A stretch of DNA of 64,000 bases from Halobacteriovoraceae bacterium (GTDB taxonomy: Bacteria > Bdellovibrionota > Bacteriovoracia > Bacteriovoracales > Bacteriovoracaceae): assembly GCA_963719505.1 (NCBI GenBank), contig CAVRCF010000003.1, positions 160,001 through 224,000 of the forward strand. Direction: 5' to 3'. The notes under the pieces were generated by a model, which saw only the letters and a list, made by a program, of their open reading frames with translations, had not been told where the DNA came from and did not search any database. Position numbers and translations under genes: made by a program. Below, one piece after another: positions 35,911-58,167 of the stretch (position 1 is its first letter; each line of letters starts with the position of its first letter).

Positions 35911-36029
35911 GCACGAACTCTTGGACCTTCTCAAACCCCAGAAACAAAAAAGCTGGGAAGCTTGTAATTTGAGTAATCTAAATGTCCAAGAAAGGGTTCT
36001 GAAATGGCGAGAGCGGCTCAACTTAAACC
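35911..36029. repeat. tRNA-Asp-linked att-like repeat, copy A (both arms, diverged)
   Basis: CACGAACTCTTG…AAACCCCAGAAAC…GTAATCTAAATG…GGGTTC + TGGCGAGAGCGGCTCAACTTAAACC. Confidence 0.85.
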
Positions 36030-36229
36030 TACTTAATATTATATACTACTAATTAGATCGGCTATTGCCGCTTTTAACTTTTTAACTATTGTTAGACTAT
36101 TAAAAAACGCTTCTAAACTAAATTATACATATTAAAAGTTAAGTTTGAAGAATATGATAAAATTAATCCTGCGGACGAGTTAAAATTTTTGTATTTATTA
36201 ATAATGTTTAGAAAACGGAGAACTCTAAA

Positions 36230-37693
36230 ATGAGCAATTTCTTTATTTATTTAACAATGTTTCTTTTAAGTATTAGTCTGATTTCATGCTCATCTGGCCC
36301 AACTAGTGGTGGTTACTTTCCTCAGGGGAAACCATTCAATATCGAGGGAACTGTATTTGAATATAGATACACAAAAGATAGCAAGTATGGGCTTACTATC
36401 GAATATTCTAATACTTGGGAACTTGAACCTATTTACTCTTCGATTAAAATCTTAAGTAAAAATGTTATACTCGTTTTAGAAACTGGAGCTAAATTTTATA
36501 AGCATTACAACTATAATACAAAAGAAATGAAAGAGACTGAAATTACCAAGGTTTATGTACCTGCTAATGAAGGCGAAAATGGTGCAGGCAGGGCAGTTTA
36601 TGTTGTTGTCAAAAAAGACTCATCTCACCATTTAGTTACTGATAAGCAAAACTTGAGTTTATTTGAATTAAAAGATCTTGATACCACAGACTCAAATTTA
36701 TTAGTGACGCAAACTCCTTTTGGTGATTTATTTATTCGTAAAAAAATTAATGATAGAAAATTTTACCAAGGAGTTTCAGCCAAAGGCGAGCTGACATCTT
36801 CTACATTCCCGGCGGATAAAGTTCACTTCATGATGAATGAAAGCACAATTAAAAAAGTCACACAATACCTGATACCGCTATTAACAATTGATGAATCGAG
36901 AGAGTTATACTGGCCAATTATCTTCTATTTCAATAATAACAAAGAATATTTAATTGAGAAGCCTGATCACATTCAGGGAGCTTACGTTGATTTTAATTTA
37001 AATGTATACAATCCTAGTTACAAAAAAAATCTATTTAATTTACCAACGAGTAGTGTGTTTTTCATTGTTTACTCTGGGCAGAACGGAAACAGTGCGTTTG
37101 AAAAAAGCTTTGTTATGCAAGACCTAGGTAGTTTTTCAGAAATGAAAAAAGTGCTTACAGACAAACCTAATAATATTAATGGTCTAAATCTGATTAGCAT
37201 ATTACCCGGAAAAGATAGTACTGGTAAAGGAGTTGTTTTTAATAATACTTTTCCTATTCTAAAAAATGAAGAAGGTAAGTATACTATTAAATCGCGTTTT
37301 GGAAGCTATAATGCAAACAATAGAGAATTTGATACACTTGACCAGGTTAGAAATCATTTAAATGAGAGAAGTTTAAATATTAATTCTGTCTCTACGAAAA
37401 TGTATGCTGATAACAAGAAAGAAGAGGCAAATAGAAGAGCAGTTAGTGATGCCACAGATAAAAGGATCAAAGATTGGCAGGATAAATTAAATGCCTCAGA
37501 CCTGGCAATTAAACAGGCTAATGAGCAAGCACAAAAAGATGAGAAAAATCGCGCCTGGAAAAGTGTCGGAGATCAAATTCAAAATGCTGGAGATAAAGCA
37601 AAGGTCAAAGGGGACTGTATCAGAAAAAGAACTCAGACCAAAAAAGATTACTTAGACAAGAAACAGGGATGGTATGAGACAGGTGGTTGTTAG
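36230..37693 (+). CDS. Lipoprotein, C-x23-C QGWY-tail family, copy 2
   Basis: Lipobox LISC; CIRKRTQTKKDYLDKKQGWYETGGC tail; sole gene between repeats A and B. Confidence 0.78.
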   Translation: MSNFFIYLTMFLLSISLISCSSGPTSGGYFPQGKPFNIEGTVFEYRYTKDSKYGLTIEYSNTWELEPIYSSIKILSKNVILVLETGAKFYKHYNYNTKEMKETEITKVYVPANEGENGAGRAVYVVVKKDSSHHLVTDKQNLSLFELKDLDTTDSNLLVTQTPFGDLFIRKKINDRKFYQGVSAKGELTSSTFPADKVHFMMNESTIKKVTQYLIPLLTIDESRELYWPIIFYFNNNKEYLIEKPDHIQGAYVDFNLNVYNPSYKKNLFNLPTSSVFFIVYSGQNGNSAFEKSFVMQDLGSFSEMKKVLTDKPNNINGLNLISILPGKDSTGKGVVFNNTFPILKNEEGKYTIKSRFGSYNANNREFDTLDQVRNHLNERSLNINSVSTKMYADNKKEEANRRAVSDATDKRIKDWQDKLNASDLAIKQANEQAQKDEKNRAWKSVGDQIQNAGDKAKVKGDCIRKRTQTKKDYLDKKQGWYETGGC

Positions 37694-37752
37694 TTAGATT
37701 CTCCAGACTTTATGATATTTACCTAGTTATCACTTTTTAATTTGGTTAGTAT

Positions 37753-37869
37753 GAACTCTTGAACCTTTTTAAACCCCAGAAACAAAAAAACAAGCTCAAG
37801 GCTTGTAATTTTGGTAATCTGAATGCCTTAAAAGGGTTCGGAGATGGGGGGAGCGGCTTCACTTGAGCC
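37753..37869. repeat. tRNA-Asp-linked att-like repeat, copy B (both arms)
   Basis: Near-identical to 57997-58101, then GCTTCACTTGAGCC. Confidence 0.88.
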
Positions 37870-37971
37870 AATTTTCAAATGTTTAGATGTCTCAACTATG
37901 TCAATTCCTTGCAGTTAATCTTACAAGACCAAATAAGTTCTAGTGTGTAAATTAGTGAATTTTATTTACTG

Positions 37972-37992
37972 CTGTATCGAATAGTGATACAG
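37972..37992. promoter_or_regulatory. Inverted repeat, likely HigA operator
   Basis: CTGTATC-N7-GATACAG just upstream of higB. Confidence 0.5.
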
Positions 37993-38014: not shown

Positions 38015-38305
38015 TTGATTATTAATTTTCAAGGAAAGATAGCCAAAGACATATGGGTGACGAATACCTCCAAGTCTTTACCAAGAGAATTATGGATACG
38101 TGCCAAAGCCTTACTGACAATTATACATGCAACAAGAGACTTGGATGATTTAAAAATTAAAGGACAACCACCCAATATTCGTCTTCATAAACTAAAAGGC
38201 GATCGAAAAGAATATTGGAGCATAACAATAAAATTACCTTGGTGTATTACGTTCAAGTTTAAAAATGGTGAATTTACCGAGGTTAAGATAGAAAACTATC
38301 ATTAA
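38015..38305 (+). CDS. higB: HigB toxin (RelE/ParE superfamily)
   Basis: PPNIRLHKLKGDRKEYWSI…W.ITFKF…V.IENYH. Confidence 0.88.
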   Translation: MIINFQGKIAKDIWVTNTSKSLPRELWIRAKALLTIIHATRDLDDLKIKGQPPNIRLHKLKGDRKEYWSITIKLPWCITFKFKNGEFTEVKIENYH

Positions 38306-38309
38306 GAAA

Positions 38310-38585
38310 GTGAGGTCTATTATGATTACTAATCCTATGCCAATGCACCCAGGTGAAGTTTTATCTTCTATTTATATGAGTGAAATGGGTCTTACTCAGG
38401 TTGGACTTGCTAAGCTCTGCAAATGTACGAGTGCAAAAGTAAACGAGATTGTTAATAAGAAACGCGGTATCACAGCAGCTTTTGCAATAACACTAGAGAC
38501 TGTCCTTGGTACAAGTGCAGAGATGTGGGTGAGAATGCAAGCAGAGTATGACCTTTGGGAAGCTAGGCAGAAGTTGGCTTCTTGA
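38310..38585 (+). CDS. higA: HigA antitoxin
   Basis: PMHPGEVL, HTH, RGITA, TSAEMW.RMQAEYDL. Confidence 0.9.
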   Translation: MRSIMITNPMPMHPGEVLSSIYMSEMGLTQVGLAKLCKCTSAKVNEIVNKKRGITAAFAITLETVLGTSAEMWVRMQAEYDLWEARQKLAS

Positions 38586-38849
38586 TGGATGGTACTTTTA
38601 TGTCTTAGAATTGGGTATTTAAGAGCCAAATTATATGGCCCTTATTGATTGACTTGATTATTTGTTTAGATCAACTCGATATATACACGAATGGTTACCA
38701 TTAGAATTTAGTAATTTTTCAACCATTTCAAACTGATAAGTTTCATTAATTTTTTTAATAGATACAATATGCCTTGCAATTAAATTAGGTGTTTGAGTTC
38801 CTAGTTCATTTGATGCAAAAGAAGTGCTTCCAGTTATTTTTGCATAATT

Positions 38850-40088
38850 TGGAAGTAACACGAATTGCGTTTACAACACCTGACTAAATATTGCCGGTAA
38901 TATTTGAGTCATGCGTTCTCAGTTAAAATTGTAGTAACCACAAAACAATTTTTAACAAAAGGAAAACACATGACTCAACAACAGTATCTCATTAATCGTA
39001 AGCTCAACATAGTTGAATTTGCAGACACTTTAAAAAATATTACAAAAGCATGCAAAAGACTTGGTGTAAGCCGACAGCATTACTACGATATTAAAACTGC
39101 CATACAAGAAGACGGACTTGAAGGCCTTATAGAAAAGTCTAGAAGAGGTCCAAGAGTTGGAAACAGGTGCGCTCCAGAAGTCGAGAAAGCTGTTCTAGAC
39201 TATTCTTTACAGTATCCTACCCATGGACAAGTTCGAGTTTCGAATGAGCTTAAAAGAAAAAGCAATATTGCTATTAGCGCTGGCGGAATTCGCTCAATCT
39301 GGCTCAGGCATGACTTACAAGTAAAACATCTAAGGTTAAAACGTCTAGAGAAATGGTCGGCTCAGGAGAATAATATTTTAACTGAGTCTCAAGTCCAAGC
39401 ACTCGAAGAGAGAAAGCAAGAGAAAGAAGCTCATGGCGAAGTAGAGACTCATCACTCTGGATTTCTATTCGCCCAAGATACTTACTACGTTGGCTACATT
39501 AAAGGTGTTGGAAAAATTTATCAGCAAACAGGAATTGATACCTATTCTAATGTGGGGTTTGCAAAACTCTATCTGGATAAAAGTCAAACTGTTGCGGCAG
39601 ATTTTTTAAACAGCAAAGTACTTCCATTCTTCGACGAACACAGGATCTCAGTTCTTAGGATTTTGACAGACAATGGACGAGAATATTGTGGTCACAAAGA
39701 TGCGCATCACTATCAATTATTCATGCACTTGAATGATATAGAACATAGTCGAACAAAAGTAAGACATCCTCAAACGAATGGATCAGTAGAGAAATTAAAT
39801 CAAATCATCCAAAATGAATTTTATAGTGTTGCATTTAGAAAGAAGCTTTATACGAGCCTAGAAGGACTGCAGGATGATCTTGATTTTTACATGAAGGATT
39901 ACAACTTCGACAGAACAAATCAAGGAAAGAGGTGCAAAGGAAGAACTCCTTATGAAACATTTTCAGAAGGAGTAAAATTGTATAAAGAAATGGTTTTTGA
40001 CACCGAGGTAGAAAGTAGCGAAATAGATTTACAATAGTTTTATATTTTGACTGAGAGCGTTTTGTAAACGCAAGTCGTGACTACTGCA
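38850..40088 (+). mobile_element. IS481-family insertion sequence
   Basis: 27-bp imperfect terminal IRs (…CACGAATTGCGTTTACAA / TTGTAAACGCAAGTCGTG…); CATAATT duplicated at 38843-38849 and 40089-40095. Confidence 0.9.
38970..40037 (+). CDS. IS481-family transposase
   Basis: QDTYYVG, LTDNGREYCG, HPQTNG.VE DDE motifs; ATG 38970 after AGGA. Confidence 0.92.
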   Translation: MTQQQYLINRKLNIVEFADTLKNITKACKRLGVSRQHYYDIKTAIQEDGLEGLIEKSRRGPRVGNRCAPEVEKAVLDYSLQYPTHGQVRVSNELKRKSNIAISAGGIRSIWLRHDLQVKHLRLKRLEKWSAQENNILTESQVQALEERKQEKEAHGEVETHHSGFLFAQDTYYVGYIKGVGKIYQQTGIDTYSNVGFAKLYLDKSQTVAADFLNSKVLPFFDEHRISVLRILTDNGREYCGHKDAHHYQLFMHLNDIEHSRTKVRHPQTNGSVEKLNQIIQNEFYSVAFRKKLYTSLEGLQDDLDFYMKDYNFDRTNQGKRCKGRTPYETFSEGVKLYKEMVFDTEVESSEIDLQ

Positions 40089-40352
40089 CATAATTAACAA
40101 TATCCTTAGGATTAAAAACACCAAGTTCATTTCTGTAGCCCATTATAGGATGTGGGCAGAAGTATCTAGCAGAAGGTTGCAAACGGAGGGTTGAGAACTT
40201 CACTATAGATTGATTTGCTAAACTTCTACGGTGGTCACTTGGTACAGGTATGGTCTGCTAGCAAACTAATTTTTTTATTTGGTTTTTAAAGTATGCACGA
40301 GTAGAGATTTTTCTTTTGAACCTCTTTCTAGTCTCTATTCTAACCAAAAAGC

Positions 40353-40815
40353 TTACTTTCCTAGTATTGTTTTAAGTTTATTCCCAAATTCTCTTCCTGC
40401 TTTCAAATCACTTATGCCTTCATTAATGGACATTAATTGAATCAATGAATTATCAATCTTGTGATAGGGGAATTTAGTATTTTGAGGTTGTACAAAGGAG
40501 AAGCGCACAGGCTTTGCTAGACCTCCAATATTAAGCACTGCACCTCCCATAAAGAAGTACCATGGAAATTTAGCTTTAATATTTTGCTTTGACCCCCAAT
40601 TCAGTATTGATTAATTGGACCGGTTCTTCTTTTTTCAGAAAGTCGATACTACTCTCTGTATTACTGTAGGCTTCTAAATCTAAAAGCTTTTTCTCACTAA
40701 ATGTTCCTCGCCCAACAAGAGAAAAAGAAAACATACTGTTATCAATTTCAATATACCCTGGTGCGCTGTGAAATATCCCATCTAATAACCACGTTTTATG
40801 AACTATATTTCTCAT
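40353..40815 (-). pseudogene. Partner protein paralog, frameshifted in a G5 run (about 40593-40597)
   Basis: Two ORFs jointly align to 31944-32405; deleting one G gives …LGSKQNIKAKFPWY. Confidence 0.75.
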
Positions 40816-42302
40816 TATTTACAGCCACCAGTTTCGTACCAACCTTGTTTTTTCGCTAAGTAATCTTTTTTGGTTTGAGTTTGTTTATTTATGCACTTTG
40901 CTTTTTTATTTGCAGCGGCACCTGCTTTTTGAATTTGATCTCCAACTCGGCTCCACACAGCATTTTTTTCATCTTCTCTTGCTTTTTCTTCAGCAATCTT
41001 CTGTGCTTCACGGTTTTTATATTTTTTCTCTTCGGCGTTTAGAATATCAATCCTTCTTTTTTCTCGCTCAGTTACGGCAGTACGCTCTTTTGTAATTTTG
41101 CTGAAATAAGAATTTTTATTTTGAGTTGCTATCGATTTATAGTTTTGAATCCGATAATTTATGGCTGCACGAGCCTCAGGCCTACTATCAAATGCTATAG
41201 CTAATTCTCCATCAAGAGATTGATTAGGTCTAGCAGCATAGACATGTTTTTCATTATCGTTTTTATAAATAACATATGCTCTATTGAATGTTGCACCGCC
41301 AGTAGTAATATCTATGCCATTTATTACTTCATAATCTGTCGCAGTATTAGTATTTGTAAACGTATTTTTTATAGCGTTGAGTATTCCACTATTAGTATCT
41401 AAGCTACCAGGGTTTATACTTACAAATTCTTTTCCGTCTTTTAAGGCTAAAATATCAAAGTTAGAGAAATAAGGGATCTTGTAAAAATCATTTTGTTTTG
41501 TCTCTGGATAAGCCCAGTGTTGTAATGAATTGTCGATAAATCCAAGAACACCTTCTGGTCTTTTAGCGATATCTCCTCTTTGATTAAAAAGTATCGGCCA
41601 ATACAGATTTCTCTCTTTATTAACAATTCTAAAAGGGATAATGAATGTTCTTTTATGGTCACCGTTATAGTAAGTACGTAAAACAACTTCATTTGCAGGG
41701 ATAGGCTCTAGATCTAGGAGTTTTCCTTCTATATCGTATCTTTTGTAGTATTTTTTATCACCCTCTTTATGTCTTACTAGAAATCCATAATAAAATCCTG
41801 GAAGGACTGCATCGAATAGCTCTCTATCGTCAAAAAAATTTCTAATCGGTTCGTCTAGATTACTGAACTTATTAGGGTAAAGCCTACCTGTTTTCGAGTT
41901 AATAGGATAAACGTCCCCATTTGATTTCTGTGCAAGACCTAGCCAATTTAAATGGCTATCTCTTTTTCCCCCTCTCTTTGGGTACCAAATTTTTTTAATA
42001 TCAGTATCAGCGTGAGAATTAGTCTTAATGTTGAAAACTTCGAAAGTATCAGAATTATTTTTTCTTAGATAAATGACTTCGTCGCTAAACGATCTAATAT
42101 TCGCGTATTTGGGCGGTATAACCCAACTCTTAGAACCTCGTTTAACCATTCCCATATAAATTCCAGAGGTCGTATCTTTCTCCCAGCAATAGCTATATTT
42201 TTGTCCGCCTAAAGTCGCAACTCCATTACAAGTATAACTTTCACGAAAACTTGCACAGGAATTAAATATTAAGATAATAAGAGCAATTAAAAATAGTTTC
42301 AT
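40815..42302 (-). CDS. Lipoprotein, C-x23-C QGWY-tail family, copy 3
   Basis: Lipobox FNSC; CINKQTQTKKDYLAKKQGWYETGGC tail. Confidence 0.78.
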   Translation of the reverse strand: MKLFLIALIILIFNSCASFRESYTCNGVATLGGQKYSYCWEKDTTSGIYMGMVKRGSKSWVIPPKYANIRSFSDEVIYLRKNNSDTFEVFNIKTNSHADTDIKKIWYPKRGGKRDSHLNWLGLAQKSNGDVYPINSKTGRLYPNKFSNLDEPIRNFFDDRELFDAVLPGFYYGFLVRHKEGDKKYYKRYDIEGKLLDLEPIPANEVVLRTYYNGDHKRTFIIPFRIVNKERNLYWPILFNQRGDIAKRPEGVLGFIDNSLQHWAYPETKQNDFYKIPYFSNFDILALKDGKEFVSINPGSLDTNSGILNAIKNTFTNTNTATDYEVINGIDITTGGATFNRAYVIYKNDNEKHVYAARPNQSLDGELAIAFDSRPEARAAINYRIQNYKSIATQNKNSYFSKITKERTAVTEREKRRIDILNAEEKKYKNREAQKIAEEKAREDEKNAVWSRVGDQIQKAGAAANKKAKCINKQTQTKKDYLAKKQGWYETGGCK

Positions 42303-42533: not shown

Positions 42534-42565
42534 TCGAAAATGGCGGGAGCGGCTCCACTTGAACC
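42534..42565. repeat. tRNA-Asp 3'-end duplicate (attR-like), copy C
   Basis: TCGAAAATGGCGGGAGCG identical to 58084-58101, followed by GCTCCACTTGAACC. Confidence 0.88.
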
Positions 42566-42711
42566 TCTTTCCAATAACTTAAAGTCTATGAGCATAGTAA
42601 TTGCCTTCGCCTACCATACTACAAAATTGATCAGCTCTGTTGGTAGTAAAAACTACCTTTATATAGAAAAATATAGTTTTTTGTGCTATTATGAATTCAA
42701 TGGAGGTACTT

Positions 42712-42936
42712 ATGGGTGCTAAGCAGCTTGCAACAAAAATTGATGAGAGTATTAAAGATGCTTTAGATCTATTCTGTGAAGATAGAGGTCTGAAGATTAA
42801 TAGGTTTCTAGAGGATGCAATTCTGGACAAAATTGAAGAGTATGAAGATATATCTGATATTCGAAAATTAAGAAAAGAAAAATCTCGCGACTTTCAAGAT
42901 GTTCTAAAAGAGTTGAAAACTAGTGGCAAATTATAA
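42712..42936 (+). CDS. Antitoxin (RHH-like)
   Basis: GGAGG RBS; small acidic protein overlapping relE. Confidence 0.7.
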   Translation: MGAKQLATKIDESIKDALDLFCEDRGLKINRFLEDAILDKIEEYEDISDIRKLRKEKSRDFQDVLKELKTSGKL

Positions 42937-43186
42937 AATCGAAATTACTTCTACAGCAGAGAAGTCGTTAAAAAAAATACCTAAAAAAGATATTGGTAAA
43001 GTTGTTGAAGCAATCCAGATTTTGGCAATATCACCTTTCCCTAGTGGTTGCCGAAAACTTAAAGGTGAAGAAGACGTCTATCGTGTTCGCCAAGGAAATT
43101 ACCGAATAATTTATGATATTCTTGATACTAAGTTAATTGTCTTAGTTTTGAAAATTGGACACCGTAAAGACATCTATAAAAAGTAG
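42923..43186 (+). CDS. relE: RelE/ParE family toxin
   Basis: P.P.G.RKLKG…YRVRQGNYRIIY…IGHRKDIY. Confidence 0.9.
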   Translation: MANYKIEITSTAEKSLKKIPKKDIGKVVEAIQILAISPFPSGCRKLKGEEDVYRVRQGNYRIIYDILDTKLIVLVLKIGHRKDIYKK

Positions 43187-43450
43187 CTCTATTTCGAGCA
43201 TACAATTACTTACAAAACAACCACGAATAATAAACTTAAGAAAGCGTTCGATGAATGTGGCATTAGATATAAGACTTGGCATTGTTGCAGACATACTAGA
43301 GGTACATTTCTGTATGGAAAAACAGGGGATAAAGCTCTATCAATGAGCTGGTTAGGGCACTCGAGTGAGCGAGTTCACGACAAATATCTACATACTTATG
43401 AGGCCTTGATGAGAGAGATTAAATCGAAGGATTGTGATTGGGGAGATTAA
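43187..43450 (+). pseudogene. Tyrosine recombinase/integrase C-terminal remnant (not in ORF track)
   Basis: Translates …YKTWHCCRHTRGT…SWLGHSSERVHDKYLH…: HxxR, LGH and catalytic Tyr boxes; no start codon. Confidence 0.8.
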
Positions 43451-43493
43451 ATAAAATTAGTAAACTTTGATGCTCAAAATCCGATAATATTGT

Positions 43494-44048
43494 ATGGCAT
43501 TTCAAGATGATGAGCGTGAAAAAGAGATGATTGAATCATTTGGACTAGATTCTGTCGAAGGACGAACTAGTACTGACGCAATTTAAAAAATTAGTGGAAA
43601 GGAATTGGAATTCGAATTGAAGTCTACTCAGTCTGGCTCAGTAACAACTGTAAGAGATTTTGGGCAGGAGCATATTCGAAAATGAAAGACAAAACACTGG
43701 TTAATTGGTGTATACACAAATAATATCCTTGATTATTGTTGGTATGGCTCTCCAAAAGATATCGCCAAATGGATAAAAAGCAAGGAAGAGTATATTCAAG
43801 CAGACTTTGATTTAGCAAGTTTGGTTCCCGATCTAGTTGGAACTGAAGTATTAAATAAGATCTTAGGTGATAAAGATTTTTATTCTTTGGAAGACGCTAG
43901 AAAATTGCATAAGAAACAATATACCAAGAATAAGTACTTAGAGTTAATGGATACGGAAACAGGTTATAGTAAATCTAAAATGCTTAGAATTCTTCAGGAC
44001 AGATGTAGGTATATAATTGAAAGAGGCTCTCTACTAATATTTTTATAA
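43494..44048 (+). pseudogene. PD-(D/E)xK restriction endonuclease-like pseudogene
   Basis: MAFQDDERE…TDAI / frameshift / EFELKST…TTVRDFG.EHIRK* …HWLIG; frameshift plus internal TGA. Confidence 0.6.
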
Positions 44049-44049
44049 A

Positions 44050-44800: not shown

Positions 44801-44874
44801 TAGTATAAAAAACGCTTTTCAGAGGCTTTTTTTGCAAGTGTAGACTGTGAATCTTCAAAATCAAAAGGTTAAAG

Positions 44875-46799: not shown

Positions 46800-47107
46800 A
46801 ATATCTCATAATCACTATGGCTATCTCTTGATGAGATAGACGTTGAGAGCATAGGTGACATGTTTATTTTTTTAGTTTTATGATCCAAGATATTTAAGAC
46901 ATTTATAAATCGCACAAGATCTGTTAATTCTTGATCAGAGATATGGTTCAAACCATCAAAATCTAATATCACTTCACTCGTTGTTGAAGCTTTACACAAG
47001 TCATTTAACTTTTCATAAGTTTCTGGGAAACACATTTGTTCCAATGATTCATGATAAATATTCACTTTAATAGTGTGACCTTGTCTGCTAAAAAAATTTA
47101 TTGGCAT
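46787..47107 (-). CDS. Divergent STAS protein (RsbS-like)
   Basis: VILDFDGLNHISD; position between RsbR-like gene and rsbT. Confidence 0.55.
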   Translation of the reverse strand: MPINFFSRQGHTIKVNIYHESLEQMCFPETYEKLNDLCKASTTSEVILDFDGLNHISDQELTDLVRFINVLNILDHKTKKINMSPMLSTSISSRDSHSDYEILWKK

Positions 47108-49539: not shown

Positions 49540-49575
49540 CCCCCCTTTTGATGGCTACCTCTTAACGGAGGAAAA

Positions 49576-50741
49576 ATGGGAAGAAATAGAAGAAGATTTA
49601 GTGAAGATCAAAAAGTTCAAATCCTACAGGAACATCGTTCAAAAGGTGCTCCAATTTCAGTTTTAGCACGAGTCCATGATATAAATGCAGTAACTTTATA
49701 CCAATGGAAAAGAGCTATGAAAGACAAACCTGATACTAATATTGATGTTGCTGACCTTTTGAAACAAATTGATCAACTAAAAAAAGACAAAGATAAACTA
49801 CTAAAGAAAGTTGGCGAGTTTACCCTCAGAGAAGAGGTCGCTCAGGATATCATCGACTTTTATAAAAAAAAGATCTTGGAACAGGAGTTGAGCGAGCAAA
49901 AGAATTCATCAAACTCAAAAAGAAAGGATCAAAAAAAATGATCTGCGAAATGTTTGGAGTTCACTCAAAATCAATTTATAAAACTACTAGCTCAAAGAAA
50001 TTTTACTTTAAAGCTGAAGATGAAGATATTCTCAGCCAGATTCGATCTATCGTTTCTTTGCGCCCAACTTATGGTTATAAAAGAGTTACGGCCATGGTCA
50101 ATCGTATGCGACTTACCCTAGGCCATCCAAGGCTTAATAAGAAGCGTATTTACAGGATAATGAGAATGAATGGCCTTCTTCTTCCAAAGTCTGCTGTGAC
50201 GAGAACTCACACTTCAACTGGAAAAGTAATGACTCTGCATTCGAATATGAGGTGGTGCAGTGATTGTTTTGAGATTAAGTGCTTTAACGGAGAAAAATTT
50301 TTTGTATCTTTTGTTTTAGATACATGTGACAGAGAAGTTCTCTCATTTGTAGCCTCAAAATCACCACTGCTTGCGACTGATATTGAAAGTTTAATGCTAA
50401 AAGCTGTACGCTATAGGTTTAAAGATTATAAGACTTCTAGAACGATAGAATTTTTATCGGATAGAGGAAGTATTTACCGAGCCCATTCAGTTAAGAATTT
50501 AGCGAATCATCTTGGTTTAAAAAGCTGTTACACAGCAGCCTATAGTCCAGAATCAAATGGAATGAGTGAAGCTTTTGTGAAAACGATCAAGCGAGATTAC
50601 GTCTACAACAGCGATTGTTACAGCTCAGATATATTGCTTAAAATGATTAAGGGATGGGTGAACGATTATAATGAAATAGCACCACATTCAGGGCTTGGCA
50701 TGTTGAGTCCAAAAGAGTATTTATTAGAAAATCAAAGGTAG
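49576..50741 (+). CDS. IS2-like transposase orfA/orfB
   Basis: RRRFSEDQK HTH; RWCSD, LSDRGS, SPESNGMSEAFVKT; A-run+G at about 49864. Confidence 0.88.
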
Positions 50742-50762
50742 CCTGAAACGGGGTCCAATCCA

Positions 50763-50947
50763 AATATGATGTCTTGGATCTAATTAAAAACAATAAGTTG
50801 AAGTTAGTGCTAGCAGACTTAACACCTGAGTCTATGCCCATTTCATTCATCTACTCACATAAAAAACACCTTTCTCAAAAAGTGACAGCTTTTATGGATT
50901 GGTTTGATGAAATTTTCCAAAGCAATATAACGATTAATAAAGGATAA
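50763..50947 (+). pseudogene. LysR regulator C-terminal remnant
   Basis: LKLVLADLTPESMPISFIYSHKKHLSQKVTAFMDWF begins at the IS right end. Confidence 0.65.
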
Positions 50948-50951
50948 ATTT

Positions 50952-52013
50952 ATGTTAACTAAGAAGAGATACTCTCTTAAGGAAATTATTATTTGGACTA
51001 AAGCTGAGATTTTTATGTTTTTCATCTTATCAATTGCTGTGGCTATTTTATATTCATTTTTTAAACTTGAGTTTCTTCAAGTCCCATGGACGCCCGTTGC
51101 TCTGATAGGTACGGCGGTGGCATTTGTCTTAGGGTTTCAGAATAACTCGGCTTATGGGCGAATTTGGGAGGCACGTAAAATTTGGGGTGGAATTGTTAAT
51201 ACTTCGAGAATGTGGGGTATGAATATTAAAGACATGATAACAAATGAACACGTAAAGGACTCATCATCACTGGAAAACTTAGACGACTATGTGAAACACT
51301 TTGTAAAAAGACACATCGTTTGGTTAACTGCTCTAAGACATGCAATGAGGCAACCTAAAAAATGGGAAGTCTATTCCGATTTAAAAAGTAACAATAAGTG
51401 GTCAGAGATAATCCACATTCCAGAGAGGAAGGTTGATGTTATAATAGATCTTAAAAAATACTTGTCTGAAAGCGAAATGTCTTATGTTGAAAATAAAAGT
51501 AACAAGCCAGCTGCTATTTTGTTTCTCCAGTCGAGTGAACTCAAAAAGTTAAAAGAAAGCGGACATATATGGGAGTTCTCGTATTTGGAACTACAAAGTC
51601 TTTTAAATGAACTTTTTACGTTGCAAGGAAAGTCAGAGCGAATAAAAAACTTTCCATACCCAAGACAGTACGCAACTTTGAGCCATATCTTCGTTTGGAT
51701 CTTTTTAATCTTACTTCCATTTGGCTTAATACCTGAGTTCTCAAAAATAGGTCAAAGCTTTTCAAGTCAGTTTCCCATTGTTGGTGATTACTTTGTAATT
51801 ATTGGTGTGTTTTTTTGTGTTGTTGTATCTTGGGTTTTTTACACTATGGAGAGAATTGGCAGAACTGGAGAAAACCCTTTTGAAGGCACTCCAAACGACG
51901 TTCCTATTTCAACAATCTCAAGAGGTATTGAAATTGACTTGTTGCAATTACTAAATGAGGATAAAGAATCTATACCTTCTCAGTTTCCTGAAAATTATGA
52001 TGTACAGATGTAG
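50952..52013 (+). CDS. Bestrophin-like (YneE) channel
   Basis: GFQNNSAYGRIWEARKIWG, ERIKNFPYP, ENPFEG. Confidence 0.88.
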   Translation: MLTKKRYSLKEIIIWTKAEIFMFFILSIAVAILYSFFKLEFLQVPWTPVALIGTAVAFVLGFQNNSAYGRIWEARKIWGGIVNTSRMWGMNIKDMITNEHVKDSSSLENLDDYVKHFVKRHIVWLTALRHAMRQPKKWEVYSDLKSNNKWSEIIHIPERKVDVIIDLKKYLSESEMSYVENKSNKPAAILFLQSSELKKLKESGHIWEFSYLELQSLLNELFTLQGKSERIKNFPYPRQYATLSHIFVWIFLILLPFGLIPEFSKIGQSFSSQFPIVGDYFVIIGVFFCVVVSWVFYTMERIGRTGENPFEGTPNDVPISTISRGIEIDLLQLLNEDKESIPSQFPENYDVQM

Positions 52014-52036
52014 TAACTAATAAATTATATTGGTGA

Positions 52037-52733
52037 CTAATCTGTTTGTGTGTACCAAGCTCTTATGAGAAGCGATTGGAAAAATTGTACTGGTTTTTTA
52101 AAGCTTGATGCTTCAAATATCCCTTCAGCTTCTTGCGGAGATATAATACCAAGGTTCTCTTTCACTCCCTTTACAGCATTTTGTAACTCTGATTCATTAA
52201 CTTTGTGATCTTGCTTCATGCCTAACCAGTTCTTCATTAAATTTGGAAATGAAGAAGTTTCAAAGTCTGCACTTATCTCGGCATTAATAAAAATACCTTT
52301 TGCTTTAACCGACTTTCAATATCTTTAAATAGGTTTTCTCTTTCCTCAATAGTTTTTAAAAAAAATGGGTAACAAATAAACACATTGAGGCATCAAATTT
52401 ATCTTCGCTCACGAGCTCGTGTAGGAAACCGTGGAATAGCTCACACTGACTTTCTAAGTTTTCATTTTTAAATCGTTCTTTACAATCATTAATCATCGAT
52501 AGTGATGGCTCTATCCCAACAAATTTCCATGTTGGGTTTTCTTTCGCTATTTTAATTACTTCAACTCCAGTCCCAATACCAACGCAAAGTATATGAGCAT
52601 TGTCAGGTAGATTTTGTAATATTAGCGAATTTAAGTAATGCAGGTTTTCAGAGATTGGTTTGTATGATTCATTTGTTTTATCATAAACATCTGCAGTCAT
52701 ATTATTAAAAATTTCTACAGCTTTATTCTTCAT
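52037..52733 (-). pseudogene. Class I SAM methyltransferase, frameshifted
   Basis: ILCVGIGTG, GIEPS; frame breaks at about 52360 and 52310. Confidence 0.75.
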
Positions 52734-52758
52734 TTTGCTTTCCAGTTAATTTTCTGTC

Positions 52759-52850
52759 GCACGAACTCTTGAACCTTTTCAAACCCCAGAAACAAAAAAA
52801 CGAAGCAAAAGCTTCGTAATCTCGGTAATCTAAATGCCCAAAAAGGGTTC
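52759..52850. repeat. tRNA-Asp-linked repeat, copy D (hairpin arm only)
   Basis: Matches 57995-58085 with variant stem ACGAAGC-AAAA-GCTTCGT; no tRNA core. Confidence 0.88.
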
Positions 52851-52874
52851 AATCTATAATCAGGTTAGAGATTA

Positions 52875-53955
52875 TTAAAGTTTATTTAAATAACTAATAT
52901 CAATTAATCTCTGATATTTTTTTCGTAATAAAAATGAAGGTAAATATTTAAGAATTAAGTTTCTGAAGAAGTTTTTTAAATTAGAAGTTGAATGGACAAA
53001 TTTTCCATAACTCCAAGACTCGTCAACTATAGATTTAACTTTTTTATATCGAAGGTTGACTAAATGAGAACCTGCACTATCGAACCCATATTTGTTGATA
53101 CAAAGACTCAGTGTGTAAGCATCCTCTATCGCTTGACAGGCGCCTTGTGCCAAGTTTGCAGTAGTTGCATGAATTGAATCACCTATTAAAATTATGTTAT
53201 TAGAATACCACTTTTTTGGAACTGGGTTGAGATCATGCATGTCGTTTCTGTAGATTTTGTCACTACATTCGATTATTTCAATTGCAGTTTCTTCAAAATC
53301 ATCTAAAAGTTGCTTGAGCTTTTTCTTTACATCTGTTGAGTCTTTTAGACCCTCTGGAGAAGTAGTTGCTAAGTACCAATATATTCTATCATCATAAAAA
53401 GGAATAGTGGCAAATCTTACATTGTTACCGAGTTGTTCGTTATATGCATCTTGAAACTTTAATTGAATAGGTTTAGATGTTACTCCTCGCCACACAGTCT
53501 GATCTGAGTATCTTTTAGCAATACTAGGAAAGAGTTGTTTTCTGACTAGAGAATTTATACCGTCACAGGCAACAAGAACTTCATAATTCGAGTGTGTTCC
53601 GTCTTCCCAAGAAATCATAGATGAATCTTGTTTTATTTGTTTTAAACGTTTATTGAAGATAATCTTTTCTTTTGGAAGATTTTCTAAAAGCATATCAGCT
53701 AAAAACTTCCTTGAAACGTTAGCGCCTTGACTTGAAATAGGGAGGTTTCTTATCAAATTTAACTTGTGATCAGTAATTACTGCTTTGTTTATGTATGCTC
53801 CTCGAGTAAGAAGAGTTTTTGTATTTATTACGTTTGATAGAATCTCAATAGTGCTTGAGCTTAAACCAATACCTGTTTCTATTTCTGGAACAACCTCTTG
53901 AGATTCATAAAGAACAAAGTCAATTTCTAAAATCTGTAAAAAATTTGCAAGTGTT
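52875..53955 (-). pseudogene. FAD-dependent monooxygenase, N-terminal GxGxxG lost at the IS1380 boundary
   Basis: Frame open up to LTLANFL at about 53955; ACDGINS.VR, IGDSIHA…QGACQAIED. Confidence 0.8.
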
Positions 53956-53957
53956 AA

Positions 53958-55818
53958 CGTAACCGCGCACGATGATACCTAATATCGTGCGTTCCAAGTA
54001 GTCGTAATAAGGCTTTTCATCATTTTGATAAATTCACCCAAAAATTGAAAAAAAAGTGTTTTTTTTACGGCCCTGCATAAAGAAAAAGCTTTTTTGTTTT
54101 GATATCTTTTTATCGCCAAACAAAAAAAAACAAACCAAAAAAGCTTTTTAGCAAAAGAACTGCCATGTACAAAACTATCAAAATTGAATCAACTTCTCAA
54201 ACATTCTCTTCTCATTCTGGTCTATTTTTATTTGAAGAGCTCTGGAAGCAACTAAAACTAGATAAAAGACTCAAATCTAAGATGCCCCGCAAAAAGAAAA
54301 ACATAGGTCCAACTCAATTAGATAAGTTTAAATCTCTACTTTATTCGTTTGTTGTTGGAAATGATTGTCTTTCTGATATTGATAATTCAAATAAAGATCC
54401 ATTGTTTGCAGAACTTACTGGGAAGGTTGCAGCTAGGACTCAAGGTGATTTTTTAAAGTCATTTGGAAATAGACATGCTGAAAAATTACAGGAATTTTTA
54501 GTTGAGCTAACTTTTGAGCTTAGAGCTTTGATGTTTCCAGATGATATAAAGTTTATTCTTTCAATGGATTCTACGCCTCATGAACATTACGGAAAAAATA
54601 TGGAAGGGATGGCGTGGAACTATAAAAATATGTGGTGCCTTGATTCTCAAAATGCTTATGATCAATTTGGATTTAGTTATTTGTTCGATCTTCGTCCTGG
54701 AAATACTCATTCGGGTAAAGATGCTGAGCGCTGGGTGCATGAAATTTTTAAGAATTGTCCAAGTCATTTAGAAAGATGGTTTAGAGCAGACTCCGCATAT
54801 GGAAAGCAAGAAGTTTATAAAGCTCTTCAAGCCAAAGGAGCAAAGTTTGCAATAGTTCTTAGGGATAATATAAGTCGATATGTTAGAAAGAAGAATCGAA
54901 ATATGTTGAATTGGGAGAAGACAGAACTTGAGTTTTTCAAGTCAAAAGAGTGTGAAATAGCGATGTCTCATTACCCAATTAAAAGCTTAGGGGAGATGCG
55001 AGTCGTTTTTATTAGAGCCCGAAAGAGCGTAGATGATATCAATGAGGCTCGAGACCTCTTTAAGAATTACAATCCTGAAGAACACGACTATAGACATTAT
55101 TCTATCATAACAAACATTGGTTTTTCAGAGATGAACAATGAAGAAGTTTTTGAGTTTTATAAAGATAGAGCAACAGCAGAGAGCTATATTCGAGAGCAAA
55201 AGTACGGCTTTGATTTTTTAAACTTTCCTTGTCGTCGTTTGAGAGCGAATAAAATTTTTGGATTAGTAGGAACGTTTGCACATAATTTAACGAGAGTAAT
55301 TTCTTTTTGCATGGAAGAGAAGTGGCGAACAGTTCGAGATAGAAAAAGTGGAGAAAGGATTCGTGTAAAACAGCTTGGATATTTTTCAAAGAGTGTTAGA
55401 AGTCATGTCATAAATATTGCGGGGCAGTTGATCCGAAGTGCTCGGAAACTAAAGTTAAGAATTTACTTTAAACAGGAGGTGGTGCTTAACAGGATTATGA
55501 AAAATTTATTGTTTAAGTTTAGTTTACAAACCTGAGCGCGTGTTCTTTGAAAAATGAATATTGTAAACCAGCTTGAACTACTGCCACCAAGGCAGACGTG
55601 CGCCTTGAGTACGTCTTTGAGTAGTTAAAACATACGCTCGAGAAGAAAGGTTGTGTTTTTATCGGAGGAAAATAGAGAATGGAAATGAAGTAGGGGACAA
55701 CTTTTGAATAAAGGTTTGGGAATGGCTGTTTTGGCGACAAAATAAGTAGATGAAAAAGTACCTGGGAGCTTTTTGAAGAGAGTTTTGAGTTTACTCGCGG
55801 AAAATTTTGATGTTGGAA
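53958..55818 (+). mobile_element. IS1380-family unit, tandem copy 1 (1861 bp)
   Basis: Direct repeat with 55819-57679; encodes transposase. Confidence 0.85.
54099..55535 (+). CDS. IS1380-family transposase (likely start ATG 54165)
   Basis: SMDST, LRPGN.HS, RADSAY, FY.DRATAE..IRE.K. Confidence 0.9.
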   Translation: MISFYRQTKKNKPKKLFSKRTAMYKTIKIESTSQTFSSHSGLFLFEELWKQLKLDKRLKSKMPRKKKNIGPTQLDKFKSLLYSFVVGNDCLSDIDNSNKDPLFAELTGKVAARTQGDFLKSFGNRHAEKLQEFLVELTFELRALMFPDDIKFILSMDSTPHEHYGKNMEGMAWNYKNMWCLDSQNAYDQFGFSYLFDLRPGNTHSGKDAERWVHEIFKNCPSHLERWFRADSAYGKQEVYKALQAKGAKFAIVLRDNISRYVRKKNRNMLNWEKTELEFFKSKECEIAMSHYPIKSLGEMRVVFIRARKSVDDINEARDLFKNYNPEEHDYRHYSIITNIGFSEMNNEEVFEFYKDRATAESYIREQKYGFDFLNFPCRRLRANKIFGLVGTFAHNLTRVISFCMEEKWRTVRDRKSGERIRVKQLGYFSKSVRSHVINIAGQLIRSARKLKLRIYFKQEVVLNRIMKNLLFKFSLQT

Positions 55819-57679
55819 CGTAACCGCGCACGATGATACCTAATATCGTGCGTTCCAAGTAGTCGTAATAAGGCTTTTCATCATTTTGATAAATTCACCC
55901 AAAAATTGAAAAAAAAGTGTTTTTTTTACGGCCCTGCATAAAGAAAAAGCTTTTTTGTTTTGATATCTTTTTATCGCCAAACAAAAAAAAACAAACCAAA
56001 AAAGCTTTTTAGCAAAAGAACTGCCATGTACAAAACTATCAAAATTGAATCAACTTCTCAAACATTCTCTTCTCATTCTGGTCTATTTTTATTTGAAGAG
56101 CTCTGGAAGCAACTAAAACTAGATAAAAGACTCAAATCTAAGATGCCCCGCAAAAAGAAAAACATAGGTCCAACTCAATTAGATAAGTTTAAATCTCTAC
56201 TTTATTCGTTTGTTGTTGGAAATGATTGTCTTTCTGATATTGATAATTCAAATAAAGATCCATTGTTTGCAGAACTTACTGGGAAGGTTGCAGCTAGGAC
56301 TCAAGGTGATTTTTTAAAGTCATTTGGAAATAGACATGCTGAAAAATTACAGGAATTTTTAGTTGAGCTAACTTTTGAGCTTAGAGCTTTGATGTTTCCA
56401 GATGATATAAAGTTTATTCTTTCAATGGATTCTACGCCTCATGAACATTACGGAAAAAATATGGAAGGGATGGCGTGGAACTATAAAAATATGTGGTGCC
56501 TTGATTCTCAAAATGCTTATGATCAATTTGGATTTAGTTATTTGTTCGATCTTCGTCCTGGAAATACTCATTCGGGTAAAGATGCTGAGCGCTGGGTGCA
56601 TGAAATTTTTAAGAATTGTCCAAGTCATTTAGAAAGATGGTTTAGAGCAGACTCCGCATATGGAAAGCAAGAAGTTTATAAAGCTCTTCAAGCCAAAGGA
56701 GCAAAGTTTGCAATAGTTCTTAGGGATAATATAAGTCGATATGTTAGAAAGAAGAATCGAAATATGTTGAATTGGGAGAAGACAGAACTTGAGTTTTTCA
56801 AGTCAAAAGAGTGTGAAATAGCGATGTCTCATTACCCAATTAAAAGCTTAGGGGAGATGCGAGTCGTTTTTATTAGAGCCCGAAAGAGCGTAGATGATAT
56901 CAATGAGGCTCGAGACCTCTTTAAGAATTACAATCCTGAAGAACACGACTATAGACATTATTCTATCATAACAAACATTGGTTTTTCAGAGATGAACAAT
57001 GAAGAAGTTTTTGAGTTTTATAAAGATAGAGCAACAGCAGAGAGCTATATTCGAGAGCAAAAGTACGGCTTTGATTTTTTAAACTTTCCTTGTCGTCGTT
57101 TGAGAGCGAATAAAATTTTTGGATTAGTAGGAACGTTTGCACATAATTTAACGAGAGTAATTTCTTTTTGCATGGAAGAGAAGTGGCGAACAGTTCGAGA
57201 TAGAAAAAGTGGAGAAAGGATTCGTGTAAAACAGCTTGGATATTTTTCAAAGAGTGTTAGAAGTCATGTCATAAATATTGCGGGGCAGTTGATCCGAAGT
57301 GCTCGGAAACTAAAGTTAAGAATTTACTTTAAACAGGAGGTGGTGCTTAACAGGATTATGAAAAATTTATTGTTTAAGTTTAGTTTACAAACCTGAGCGC
57401 GTGTTCTTTGAAAAATGAATATTGTAAACCAGCTTGAACTACTGCCACCAAGGCAGACGTGCGCCTTGAGTACGTCTTTGAGTAGTTAAAACATACGCTC
57501 GAGAAGAAAGGTTGTGTTTTTATCGGAGGAAAATAGAGAATGGAAATGAAGTAGGGGACAACTTTTGAATAAAGGTTTGGGAATGGCTGTTTTGGCGACA
57601 AAATAAGTAGATGAAAAAGTACCTGGGAGCTTTTTGAAGAGAGTTTTGAGTTTACTCGCGGAAAATTTTGATGTTGGAA
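55819..57679 (+). mobile_element. IS1380-family unit, tandem copy 2
   Basis: Apparently identical head-to-tail copy. Confidence 0.85.
55960..57396 (+). CDS. IS1380-family transposase, copy 2
   Basis: Protein identical to 54099-55535. Confidence 0.9.
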   Translation: MISFYRQTKKNKPKKLFSKRTAMYKTIKIESTSQTFSSHSGLFLFEELWKQLKLDKRLKSKMPRKKKNIGPTQLDKFKSLLYSFVVGNDCLSDIDNSNKDPLFAELTGKVAARTQGDFLKSFGNRHAEKLQEFLVELTFELRALMFPDDIKFILSMDSTPHEHYGKNMEGMAWNYKNMWCLDSQNAYDQFGFSYLFDLRPGNTHSGKDAERWVHEIFKNCPSHLERWFRADSAYGKQEVYKALQAKGAKFAIVLRDNISRYVRKKNRNMLNWEKTELEFFKSKECEIAMSHYPIKSLGEMRVVFIRARKSVDDINEARDLFKNYNPEEHDYRHYSIITNIGFSEMNNEEVFEFYKDRATAESYIREQKYGFDFLNFPCRRLRANKIFGLVGTFAHNLTRVISFCMEEKWRTVRDRKSGERIRVKQLGYFSKSVRSHVINIAGQLIRSARKLKLRIYFKQEVVLNRIMKNLLFKFSLQT

Positions 57680-57721
57680 AAAAAGATAGCGATTTAAAAT
57701 GAGCCGAATTGAAAAAAAAGA

Positions 57722-57948
57722 GCTAGAGCAAAAAAAAAGGCGCAACTATGCGACCTCTATGGACCAGCGAACTCAAAATGAGCCGAATGAAAAAAATATT
57801 GTCAGAGCAGTGGAAAAGATTCTCGCGGATTTGGGCTAGAGCAAAAAAAAAGGCGCAACTATGCGACCTCTATGGACCAGCGAACTCAAAATGAGCCGAA
57901 TGAAAAAAATATTGTCAGAGCAGTGGAAAAGATTCTCGCGGATTTGGG
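57722..57948. repeat. 113-bp tandem duplication ending in CTCGCGGATTTGG(G)
   Basis: Units begin at 57722 and 57835 with GCTAGAGCAAAAAAAAAGGCGC. Confidence 0.9.
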
Positions 57949-57994
57949 ATTTGGGTTTTGTTTTTAGATGTTTTTTTCATTGATATTTTCCGCT

Positions 57995-58090
57995 CACGAA
58001 CTTTTGAACCTTTTTAAACCCCAGAAACAAAAAAACAAGCTCAAAGGCTTGTAATTTCGGTAATCTAAATGCCCAAAAAGGGTTCGAAAA
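57995..58090 (-). repeat. tRNA-Asp-linked repeat, copy E, containing a terminator-like hairpin
   Basis: Directly 3' of the tRNA CCA; ACAAGC/GCTTGT stem plus T-run on the minus strand. Confidence 0.88.
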
Positions 58091-58167
58091 TGGCGGGAGC
58101 GAAGGGACTCGAACCCTCGGCCTTCTGCGTGACAGGCAGACGTTATAACCAACTTAACTACGCCCCC
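58091..58167 (-). tRNA. tRNA-Asp (GTC)
   Basis: GGGGGCGTAGTTAAGTTGGTTATAACG TCTGC CTGTCAC GCAGA AGGCC GAGGG TTCGAGT CCCTT CGCTCCCGCCA folds as a cloverleaf with encoded CCA. Confidence 0.97.

Follow-up and report, generated by a model that had tools for sequence, protein, structure and literature searches.

An array of att-like units downstream of tRNA-Asp in a Bacteriovoracaceae genome points to probable serial integration of elements that now lack integrases

An uncultured predatory bacterium has a single tRNA-Asp gene; what has collected downstream of it, and by what means did it arrive there? The source genome (G000; NCBI GenBank assembly GCA_963719505.1) is a Bacteriovoracaceae metagenome-assembled genome of 3.69 Mb in 5 contigs, with a completeness of 83.5%. 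The window, as we call the stretch of DNA analyzed here, comprises 64,000 nucleotides of contig CAVRCF010000003.1 (positions 160,001 to 224,000), and genomes, contigs and loci are cited below by our own handles (G, C and L). A first-pass annotation made from the letters of the window alone described five att-like junctions at tRNA-Asp and proposed that small non-autonomous cassettes had been loaded there one after another by a recombinase acting in trans, giving an integron-like array. We find that this interpretation is partly supported. The array spans window positions 32383-58167, on the downstream side of tRNA-Asp(GTC), which is the single tRNA that ARAGORN called in the window and the sole tRNA-Asp among the 32 tRNAs of G000. 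The explanation that we favor is one of successive integrations into the flank of the tRNA.

Directly 3′ of tRNA-Asp lies an element of ~105 nt, here called D. Read in the direction of the tRNA, it opens with TTTTCGAACCC and a small hairpin followed by a conserved AT-rich stretch. Next come a hairpin of the terminator type, with its T-run, and a conserved tail that ends in GGTTCAAGAGTTCG. A blastn search of the whole genome, with window positions 57961-58101 as the query, matched 37753-37855 (91.3% identity over 104 nt, E = 2e-35), 52749-52850 (89.4% over 104 nt, E = 6e-30) and 35912-36015 (82.4% over 108 nt, E = 6e-24), as well as a weak copy at 32419-32456 (84% over 38 nt, E = 6e-5) and the tRNA core only at 42534-42551 (18/18, E = 0.03); on the other four contigs the best E value was 0.37, and no copy was found outside the locus. 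A covariance model (CM) of D, run over the whole window with filters off, placed six copies, all on the minus strand, with scores from 125.8 down to 36.8 bits (Table 1), the next-best match having an E value of 1.4. All D copies in G000 thus sit within 26 kb of tRNA-Asp. The five junctions of the first-pass annotation are all real by blastn, CM and motif search, far beyond chance, and two more degenerate D copies carry the array past them to position 32383. The hairpin of D comes in two subtypes, 3 compensated pairs apart, both of which occur within G000 and within another array-bearing genome, G078. An Rfam scan of 31000-59000 at E values up to 1 returned the tRNA as the sole credible match (70.6 bits); a 14-bit match to a mammalian long noncoding RNA model at 44242-44437 was judged to be chance.

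A dispersed miniature repeat, of the miniature inverted-repeat transposable element or repetitive extragenic palindromic type, that came to lie near a tRNA by chance would likewise be a short conserved noncoding repeat with a hairpin. This origin retains almost no probability: it is refuted for G000, where blastn and the CM found no copy outside the locus in 3.69 Mb, and elsewhere D is also tied to tRNA-Asp and a diverged form of it to tRNA-Ser. As the first-pass annotation had supposed, the repeat is confined to the tRNA-Asp locus rather than scattered genome-wide.

At three junctions the repeat is preceded by, or replaced with, a piece of the tRNA itself. Upstream of D at J3 (37.8 kb) and J4 (35.9 kb), and at J2, which has no D, the last 10-11 nt of the tRNA recur. 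The 15 nt before this tRNA core, GGTTCAAGTGGAGCC, are T-arm-like and differ from the real T-arm; we call them the pseudo T-arm. A 25-nt motif of pseudo T-arm plus core, allowing up to 5 substitutions, occurs at 3 sites in the G000 genome (42541, 37845 and 36005), the positions at which the annotation had placed the tRNA 3′ core with a second conserved arm. The full copies J3 (D part at 37740-37846 by CM, with a terminator-like hairpin at 37790-37806) and J4 (D part at 35902-36006) have an attP-like make-up of P arm, core and P′ arm, as between tandemly integrated units; here, too, its description of att-like junctions anchored at the 3′ end of tRNA-Asp was borne out. Beyond the TTTTCGA that ends J2 lies unrelated sequence with a terminator-like hairpin of its own (42499-42516), so that such hairpins were called both in D and in the non-D arm of J2. 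The motif GGTTCAAG is present in the pseudo T-arm and again in the tail of D and could be an arm-type binding site.

The distribution of D beyond G000 bears on whether it belongs to the chromosome or to something mobile. Across the family, the CM detected D in 14/151 genomes and 11/69 genera, G000 counted, and a canonical 34-nt motif was matched with up to 3 mismatches in 6/237 genomes (5/69 genera). Other small modules are bounded by the unit in a further five representative genomes, from four further genera, plus metagenome contigs, and the pseudo T-arm is nearly identical in five genomes of five genera; scans of viral contigs gave 0 matches to the D motif and 0 to the pseudo-T-arm motif. 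Among the tRNA-Asp trailers of 23 relatives, 2 (of the same genus) contain D, and the other 21 are unrelated, each with its own terminator. The ArsP permease and short-chain dehydrogenase/reductase (SDR) genes upstream are syntenic at 53-74% amino acid identity. When the window proteins were searched against the relatives' loci by tblastn, synteny appeared on the ArsP/SDR side only, plus one chromate-transporter gene (8600-9889) found ~11 kb beyond the G078 array. D is up to 93% identical in nucleotides between genera whose flanking ArsP proteins are ~53% identical, and for each of the 5 G000 copies tested, the nearest relative lies in another genome. We conclude that D is carried by something that moves between genera and is element-borne, not an inherited trailer. 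By eye, 3/21 unrelated trailers (G001, L009; G006, L025; G016, L010) show a short likeness to D after the terminator, namely, a T-run and then a TTTCTGGGG-like or AAAAGTTCGT-like stretch within the first 95 nt after tRNA-Asp; these are either very old D relics or a common functional motif.

The same data already contradict a purely local origin, in which the copies would be decayed in-place tandem duplicates of tRNA-Asp and its trailer and the genes between them ordinary chromosome. All copies do lie in direct orientation at one locus, as this origin would have it, but the closest relatives of the G000 copies are those of other genera, the pseudo T-arm is unlike the real T-arm and yet common to several genomes, nothing of the tRNA beyond its 3′ 10-11 nt recurs, and the genes carried are either additional paralogs or rare. 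We regard duplication in place as highly improbable.

Relatives differ at the repeat boundaries, as the first-pass annotation would require. On the complete chromosome of G062, tRNA-Asp and the first 18 nt of D are followed by a 1.45-kb insert (a helix-turn-helix fragment, insertion sequence [IS] debris and MazEF), then by pseudo T-arm, core and a full D, and then by a DUF3050 gene; the insert presents an attL/attR picture, and the nearest integrase is >800 kb away. In G003, of the same genus as G000, the D at the tRNA is of the subtype found at 52.8 kb in the window (J1; 91.6% identity), and a ParE 870 bp beyond it is 92% identical in amino acids over 62 residues to the window ParE. Compared with this layout, G000 therefore carries an insertion of 5.2 kb, placed precisely between its tRNA and the J1-type D. 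G078 has six D copies in 10 kb, the first at a 19-nt remnant of a true tRNA 3′ end, which delimit five modules: an unknown 380-amino-acid (aa) protein; a transposase; HNOB and a kinase; an amidohydrolase group; and DUF3050. The DUF3050 gene begins 16-18 nt after D in both genera concerned (G062, L063 15274-16041; G078, L061 12546-13298), which may reflect an older common state of the locus or a common module. Two contigs of G051, overlapping by 55 bp, give tRNA-Asp-D, ~4.9 kb of small enzymes and then pseudo T-arm-core-D. A 98-kb metagenome contig reads tRNA-Asp-D, a glyoxalase and DUF1761 module, a D-only copy, and a module of an AraC fragment and a glyoxalase; a further D copy on it keeps only the CATTTTCG start.

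In G007, the flanks are unrelated: a GNAT gene has a D copy on one side and a pseudo-T-arm-core copy on the other, and a histidine-kinase gene (L034 9094-9846) ends right after its H-box at the pseudo-T-arm-core edge. A clean secondary-site insertion was rejected for this module because the kinase does not resume on the far side, and the locus is therefore a mosaic. In G054 and G043, a diverged D follows tRNA-Ser(GCT), and the pseudo units carry a Ser-type acceptor core; these Ser-type loci hold MazF (G054, L070 10487-12654) and two DNA methyltransferases, IS66 and an integrase fragment (G043, L067 267-5991).

The half units reveal where the joints fall. Copies with D only begin at CATTTTCG (L076), GAACCC (window, 52.8 kb) or AAACCC (L075), and copies with the core only end at CCATTT (G007), TTTTCGA (J2) or TTTATGG (G062 attL). 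These are six independent breakpoints within ~22 nt just after CCA, each joined to unrelated sequence, a pattern that points to site-specific recombination there. J1, whose homology begins at its GAACCC and whose nearest relatives are copies in other genomes, is either attL-like or equipped with a heterologous P arm. If D were instead no more than portable homology, circles or fragments could enter and leave by RecA-dependent, Campbell-type recombination without a dedicated enzyme. Consistent with this, the repeats are long (105-236 nt), near-identity in G051 extends well beyond the unit, and the left homology boundaries vary between copies. We nevertheless consider it unlikely, given that half units joined to unrelated sequence cannot come from homologous exchange and that the breakpoints are so tightly clustered; moreover, an integrase remnant is present, and the conservation of the pseudo T-arm in five genera suggests a protein-binding role. 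Site-specific recombination with unlike arms can produce such half units, and we therefore read the unit as an attP.

On balance, we think it somewhat probable that the array arose by serial integration of one family of tRNA-flank-targeting elements that are now integrase-less, similar to cis-mobilizable elements (CIMEs). The attP of these elements would be the ~150-nt unit, with the pseudo T-arm as P arm, the 3′ strand of the tRNA acceptor with CCA and the next few nucleotides as core, and D as P′ arm, and crossover would probably fall in the ~22 nt just after CCA. Upon integration, D would become the new trailer and the replacement terminator of the tRNA. Each newcomer would leave tRNA-core-D at the tRNA and push older modules outward, so that serial integration would yield the succession tRNA-core-D, module, attP-like unit, module; J3 and J4 have exactly that form, and the half units J1 and J2 would be joints of neighbors with unlike arms. 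The integrases of the elements would then have been lost, with one C-terminal remnant surviving in the 10.3-kb module, and the leftover non-autonomous modules with their accessory cargo would have been invaded by IS elements. Short modules may have originated by deletion or through loading by the integrase of a sibling element. All of this is most simply combined by supposing an element family in which some members are autonomous and others are not, as with CIMEs.

Evidence for former autonomy comes from integrase fragments. When 39 tyrosine recombinases gathered from six genomes were used as tblastn queries, the window gave one match, at 43217-43429 (E = 1.5e-14, 42% identity), which aligns to residues 351-421, the last 71, of a 429-aa integrase of G007. 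Its frame shows HxxR, LGH and Y motifs and matches positions 110-169 of the 172 in Pfam PF00589 (E = 0.0013); the N-terminal ~340 aa are missing. The remnant lies 640 bp from the pseudo-T-arm end of module E2, and a ParE-type pair occupies the place of its 5′ part. In the Ser-type module of G043, an N-terminal integrase fragment cut by IS66 likewise lies near the pseudo-T-arm end. Two fragments, both near such ends, imply that autonomous members existed. The claim that no intact recombinase lies in the window stands for tyrosine and serine recombinases, none of which was found by Pfam on 36 open reading frames (ORFs) or by tblastn, but it passed over this remnant and the several intact DDE transposases that are present. 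Contrary to the non-autonomous cassettes that the annotation had assumed, at least one module once had its own integrase. G000 has ten PF00589 matches in all, none on the contig of the window. It also has two classical islands with intact integrases: one at tRNA-Arg(TCT) (L118 = C1:1166000-1172000), where a perfect repeat of 28 bp recurs 22.7 kb away and the integrase is a distant relative of the window remnant (34% identity over 70 aa), and one at tRNA-Met (C1:857593-862300), with a 58-bp repeat 4.6 kb away.

Several observations weigh against serial integration by elements that brought their own integrases. Counting as a module each segment between adjacent units in all arrays, we obtained 20 (6 in G000, 5 in G078, 1 each in G062, G002, G007 and G051, 2 on the metagenome contig and, of Ser type, 2 in G054 and 1 in G043). 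An intact tyrosine recombinase occurs in 0/20 and fragments in 2/20, with Pfam covering the 36 window ORFs, 80/149 listed ORFs of other loci and 21 further ORFs; tblastn of the 39 integrases against 22 loci gave no match at E 0.01. A check for an integrase beside the same arms, as suggested in the first-pass annotation, did not reveal one: the 29 integrase loci of five D-positive genomes (G002, G007, G051, G062 and G078) all lie outside arrays and lack a D-like site within ~1.5 kb, and the best CM match on these loci had an E value of 0.66. Of full-length integrases, the one most closely related to the remnant is encoded on G007 contig C41, which has no tRNA and no D within ~1.5 kb of that gene. 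Clustering of the 39 integrases gave no family common to all six D-positive genomes, and an autonomous element with the unit beside an intact integrase was not found in the genomes and contigs examined. Many modules are, in addition, compact (1-2 genes, 0.9-1.9 kb, short spacers), which is not as random decay of integrase-bearing elements predicts. In G051, the 4.9-kb integrase-less module lies between 236-bp repeats that are 98.7% identical and therefore looks recent.

These points lend weight to a different account, one that we hold to be possible but doubtful: that compact Bacteriovoracaceae modules carrying the ~150-nt unit are stacked at the tRNA-Asp flank by a recombinase encoded elsewhere. 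Modules would be excised as circles, enter either the tRNA-Asp flank or units already resident, and be exchanged between genera, with a sister unit for tRNA-Ser; the outcome would be integron-like, with a different site (the tRNA-flank att unit) and a different enzyme. Besides the lack of intact integrases and the G051 module, it would account for the many modules of one or two genes (lipoprotein, glutamate dehydrogenase [GDH], GNAT, glyoxalase, DUF3050, membrane protein), for toxin-antitoxin pairs at the pseudo-T-arm end of at least 3 modules (two in the window, with a ParE-type and a HigBA pair, and one in G062, with MazEF; a MazF gene is also in a Ser-type module of G054), and for the strong conservation of the unit across genera. 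The cargo (toxin-antitoxin, GNAT, glyoxalase, nucleotidyltransferases) recalls integron cassettes. The GNAT module of G007 and E2 are both ordered D, cargo, pseudo T-arm with unrelated flanks, the product expected if a one-unit circle recombines elsewhere. Against this account, no recombinase emerged as a candidate: the integrase clusters are not common to all D-positive genomes and none is near the unit, and no integron integrase was found. The fragments in two modules show that autonomous relatives existed, and the G000 copies are diverged (82-91% to D0 by blastn) in an array so full of IS elements and gene fragments that it is relic-like. Nor were circle reads seen; the sole run found, a sediment metagenome (X1) with 0.05 of the sampled words, gave over 33000-52999 ten 150-200-nt pieces at a depth of 2-4 and no joints, too little to inform on excision or variants.

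Serial integration into the tRNA flank thus remains the reading that we apply to the modules of the window (Table 1). In G000, these hold from 1 to >10 genes on both strands, some with IS elements, and the cargo is accessory: toxin-antitoxin pairs, an extra GDH, lipoproteins and IS elements, which are multicopy in the genome. The housekeeping GDH (423 aa, contig C1), common to relatives, is 42% identical to the array GDH, for which the closest relative reaches 46% identity; contig C1 also encodes another TrkH, 34% identical to that of the array. The single-gene lipoprotein module, described in the first-pass annotation as 1.7 kb, is confirmed, with a 487-aa product whose signal peptide ends, by eye, in a lipobox-like Cys. 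Homologs of this protein occur in 3/237 family genomes, G000 itself counted; apart from itself, its one match inside G000 is the paralog in the same array, and none of its matches is >31% identical. Searches with the lipoprotein and the GDH found no cassette common to another genome. The putative antitoxin upstream of the ParE toxin (42923-43186) has 81 aa and no Pfam match.

Table 1. Features of the tRNA-Asp array in window coordinates, listed from the tRNA outward.
Feature	Coordinates	Strand	Support
tRNA-Asp(GTC), array anchor (attL side)	58091..58167	-	ARAGORN; Rfam RF00005 70.6 bits
D0, directly after tRNA: short hairpin, terminator hairpin with T-run, conserved tail	57985..58092	-	CM 125.8 bits
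Two tandem identical IS copies; later invader of tRNA-nearest module	53940..57947	+	5 copies in genome
113-bp tandem repeats of tandem IS	57722-57947		
DDE_Tnp_1_4 transposases of tandem IS	54099-55535, 55960-57396	+	Pfam
FAD-monooxygenase fragment, profile match only from position 153	52875..53756	-	Pfam
J1: D copy without tRNA core or pseudo T-arm	52750..52857	-	CM 121.5 bits
E2 module, 10.3 kb, cargo	43430..52749	mixed	Pfam; IS copies elsewhere in genome
E2 methyltransferase fragment	52356-52733		Pfam
E2 bestrophin	50952-52013		Pfam
E2 two IS3 elements	48284-50741		Pfam
E2 STAS/anti-sigma-kinase-like/histidine kinase/response regulator set	44875-47528		Pfam
E2 EEP nuclease	44111-44800		Pfam
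E2 tyrosine integrase C-terminal remnant, ~71 aa	43217..43429	+	tblastn, Pfam
E2 ParE-type pair, adjoining pseudo-T-arm end	42691..43186	+	Pfam
J2: pseudo T-arm + tRNA 3′ core + TTTTCGA, no D	42534..42574	-	
E1 module	38015..42302	mixed	Pfam
E1 lipoprotein paralog	40815-42302	-	
E1 frameshifted small ORF	40359-40815	-	
E1 IS481-like element	38904-40037	+	
E1 HigB/HigA-like pair, adjoining pseudo-T-arm end	38015-38585	+	
J3: full unit (pseudo T-arm + core + D), attP-like	37740..37878	-	CM 118.1 bits
Single-gene module, putative lipoprotein, 487 aa	36230..37693	+	
J4: full unit (pseudo T-arm + core + D), more diverged	35902..36038	-	CM 99.1 bits
Single-gene module, extra GDH paralog	34248..35654	+	Pfam
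J5: degenerate D copy, no recognizable core	33853..33959	-	CM 82.2 bits
TrkH paralog, last recognizable module	32467..33798	-	Pfam
J6: weak partial D-like copy, distal limit of detectable array	32383..32488	-	CM 36.8 bits, E 1.6e-4

Further features of the window and its surroundings concern the same genes. The two lipoproteins of the array (36230-37693 and 40815-42302) are 31% identical and share a conserved C-terminal motif, and this likeness is the reason for a 174-nt inverted repeat (37517-37690/40821-40994). On the minus strand at 40359-42302, the large lipoprotein is followed by a frameshifted ORF of ~150 aa, and a similar pair of large and small ORFs lies at 30262-32405 on the plus strand; the small ORFs are paralogs (42-55% identity), and the 560-aa ORF at 30262-31944 has no match to the array lipoproteins. 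An isolated 150-aa C-terminal TrkH fragment at 29018-29470, 3 kb left of the array TrkH and on the opposite strand, hints at rearrangement beyond the last detectable D copy. The 1.86-kb IS (DDE_Tnp_1_4) that occurs in tandem next to the tRNA is also found at C1:42608-44808, C5:83408-85439 and C5:1089096-1091112 of G000. At 4/4 loci, its end with the 113-bp tandem repeats lies 35-170 nt from a tRNA (Asp, His) or a tRNA-like 3′ end, in constant orientation relative to those 3′ ends, and the tRNA-like fragment adjoins an integrase gene; the element may prefer tRNA-downstream or att regions as its target.

In our best reading, the locus is one more case of tRNA flanks collecting accessory genes, here in little-studied predatory bacteria, and the unit provides a well-defined att sequence that can be searched for in order to map horizontal gene flow across the Bacteriovoracaceae. 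Should loading by a recombinase encoded elsewhere prove true, the arrays would be a second, independent gene-cassette solution beside integrons, with the ~150-nt unit as substrate and a crossover that would fall just after CCA.

How does the array compare with known systems? Integron cassettes are single, co-oriented, mostly promoterless ORFs, and their attC sites are imperfect palindromes that fold as single strands. The array shares with integrons an ordered succession of small, mostly integrase-less modules at one entry site and a cargo spectrum of toxin-antitoxin, GNAT, glyoxalase and nucleotidyltransferase genes. However, contrary to the integron-like array first proposed, it has no intI, lacks attI and Pc as well as any folded site of the attC type, contains genes in both orientations, includes modules with several genes or IS elements, and is anchored in a tRNA flank. 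The integron integrase model TIGR02249 had no match above its 265-bit cutoff genome-wide (best, 44 bits). Nor was attC-type folding detected at J3 and J4 on either strand (z from -1.2 to -1.7 versus shuffles), where folding yields no more than the hairpin of the terminator and a short inverted repeat outside it. By none of the criteria tested is the locus an integron.

CIMEs and site-specific accretion are reportedly known from work on ICESt1 and ICESt3 of Streptococcus thermophilus. Like CIMEs, the modules are flanked by att units, lack integration and transfer genes and stand in tandem with related elements at one site, and the insert of G062 has the attL/attR form. Unlike for them, no cognate integrative and conjugative or integrative and mobilizable element was found in any of the six genomes.

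A close parallel in layout is offered by Dehalococcoides, where multiple tandem islands lie downstream of ssrA, each bounded by a 20-bp repeat with a conserved motif beside it that has no match to ssrA; an integration module is present in 16 islands, and the 15 without one were proposed to be cis-mobilizable (PMC3146451). Both systems consist of tandem islands after one small-RNA gene, bounded by direct repeats of its 3′ end, with an extra non-gene motif (compare the pseudo T-arm) and strain-specific content; in Dehalococcoides, about half of the islands are without recombinase genes. They differ in that the Dehalococcoides islands use a serine recombinase, DsiB, kept in 16 of them, whereas here a tyrosine remnant survives and 0/20 modules are intact in this respect, and in that the 20-bp repeat there contrasts with a ~150-nt attP-like unit and often single-gene modules here. 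The tRNA-adjacent islands of Prochlorococcus bear the marks of one integration after another and contain fragmented integrases as well as partial tRNAs (bioRxiv 10.1101/2020.12.28.424599). Such tycheposon islands resemble the array in that successive integrations at one tRNA push older elements inward to the island and in their adaptive cargo; as described there, they are defined by integrases, replication genes and other hallmark genes, none of which was found here, and their repeats are partial tRNAs, whereas the conserved part here is mostly post-tRNA sequence.

The Islander survey lists 125 tandems of at least 2 islands and 4 of at least 3, with an integrase required for each member (PMC4383910). 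An intact tRNA gene and displaced 3′ fragments in direct orientation, as in Islander arrays, are found here, whereas an integrase per island is replaced by one C-terminal remnant; the array would therefore not be called by Islander. A Halobacteriovorax comparison describes, in the part accessible, a hotspot with integrase pseudogenes and nothing like the D unit (PMC5760749). Our literature search found no description of the unit or of Bacteriovoracaceae tRNA-Asp arrays, although closer parallels may exist in the supplements to the papers on tycheposons and Dehalococcoides. Set beside these systems, the array is a familiar kind of integration hotspot, unusual for the absence of any intact integrase and for the compactness of its modules.

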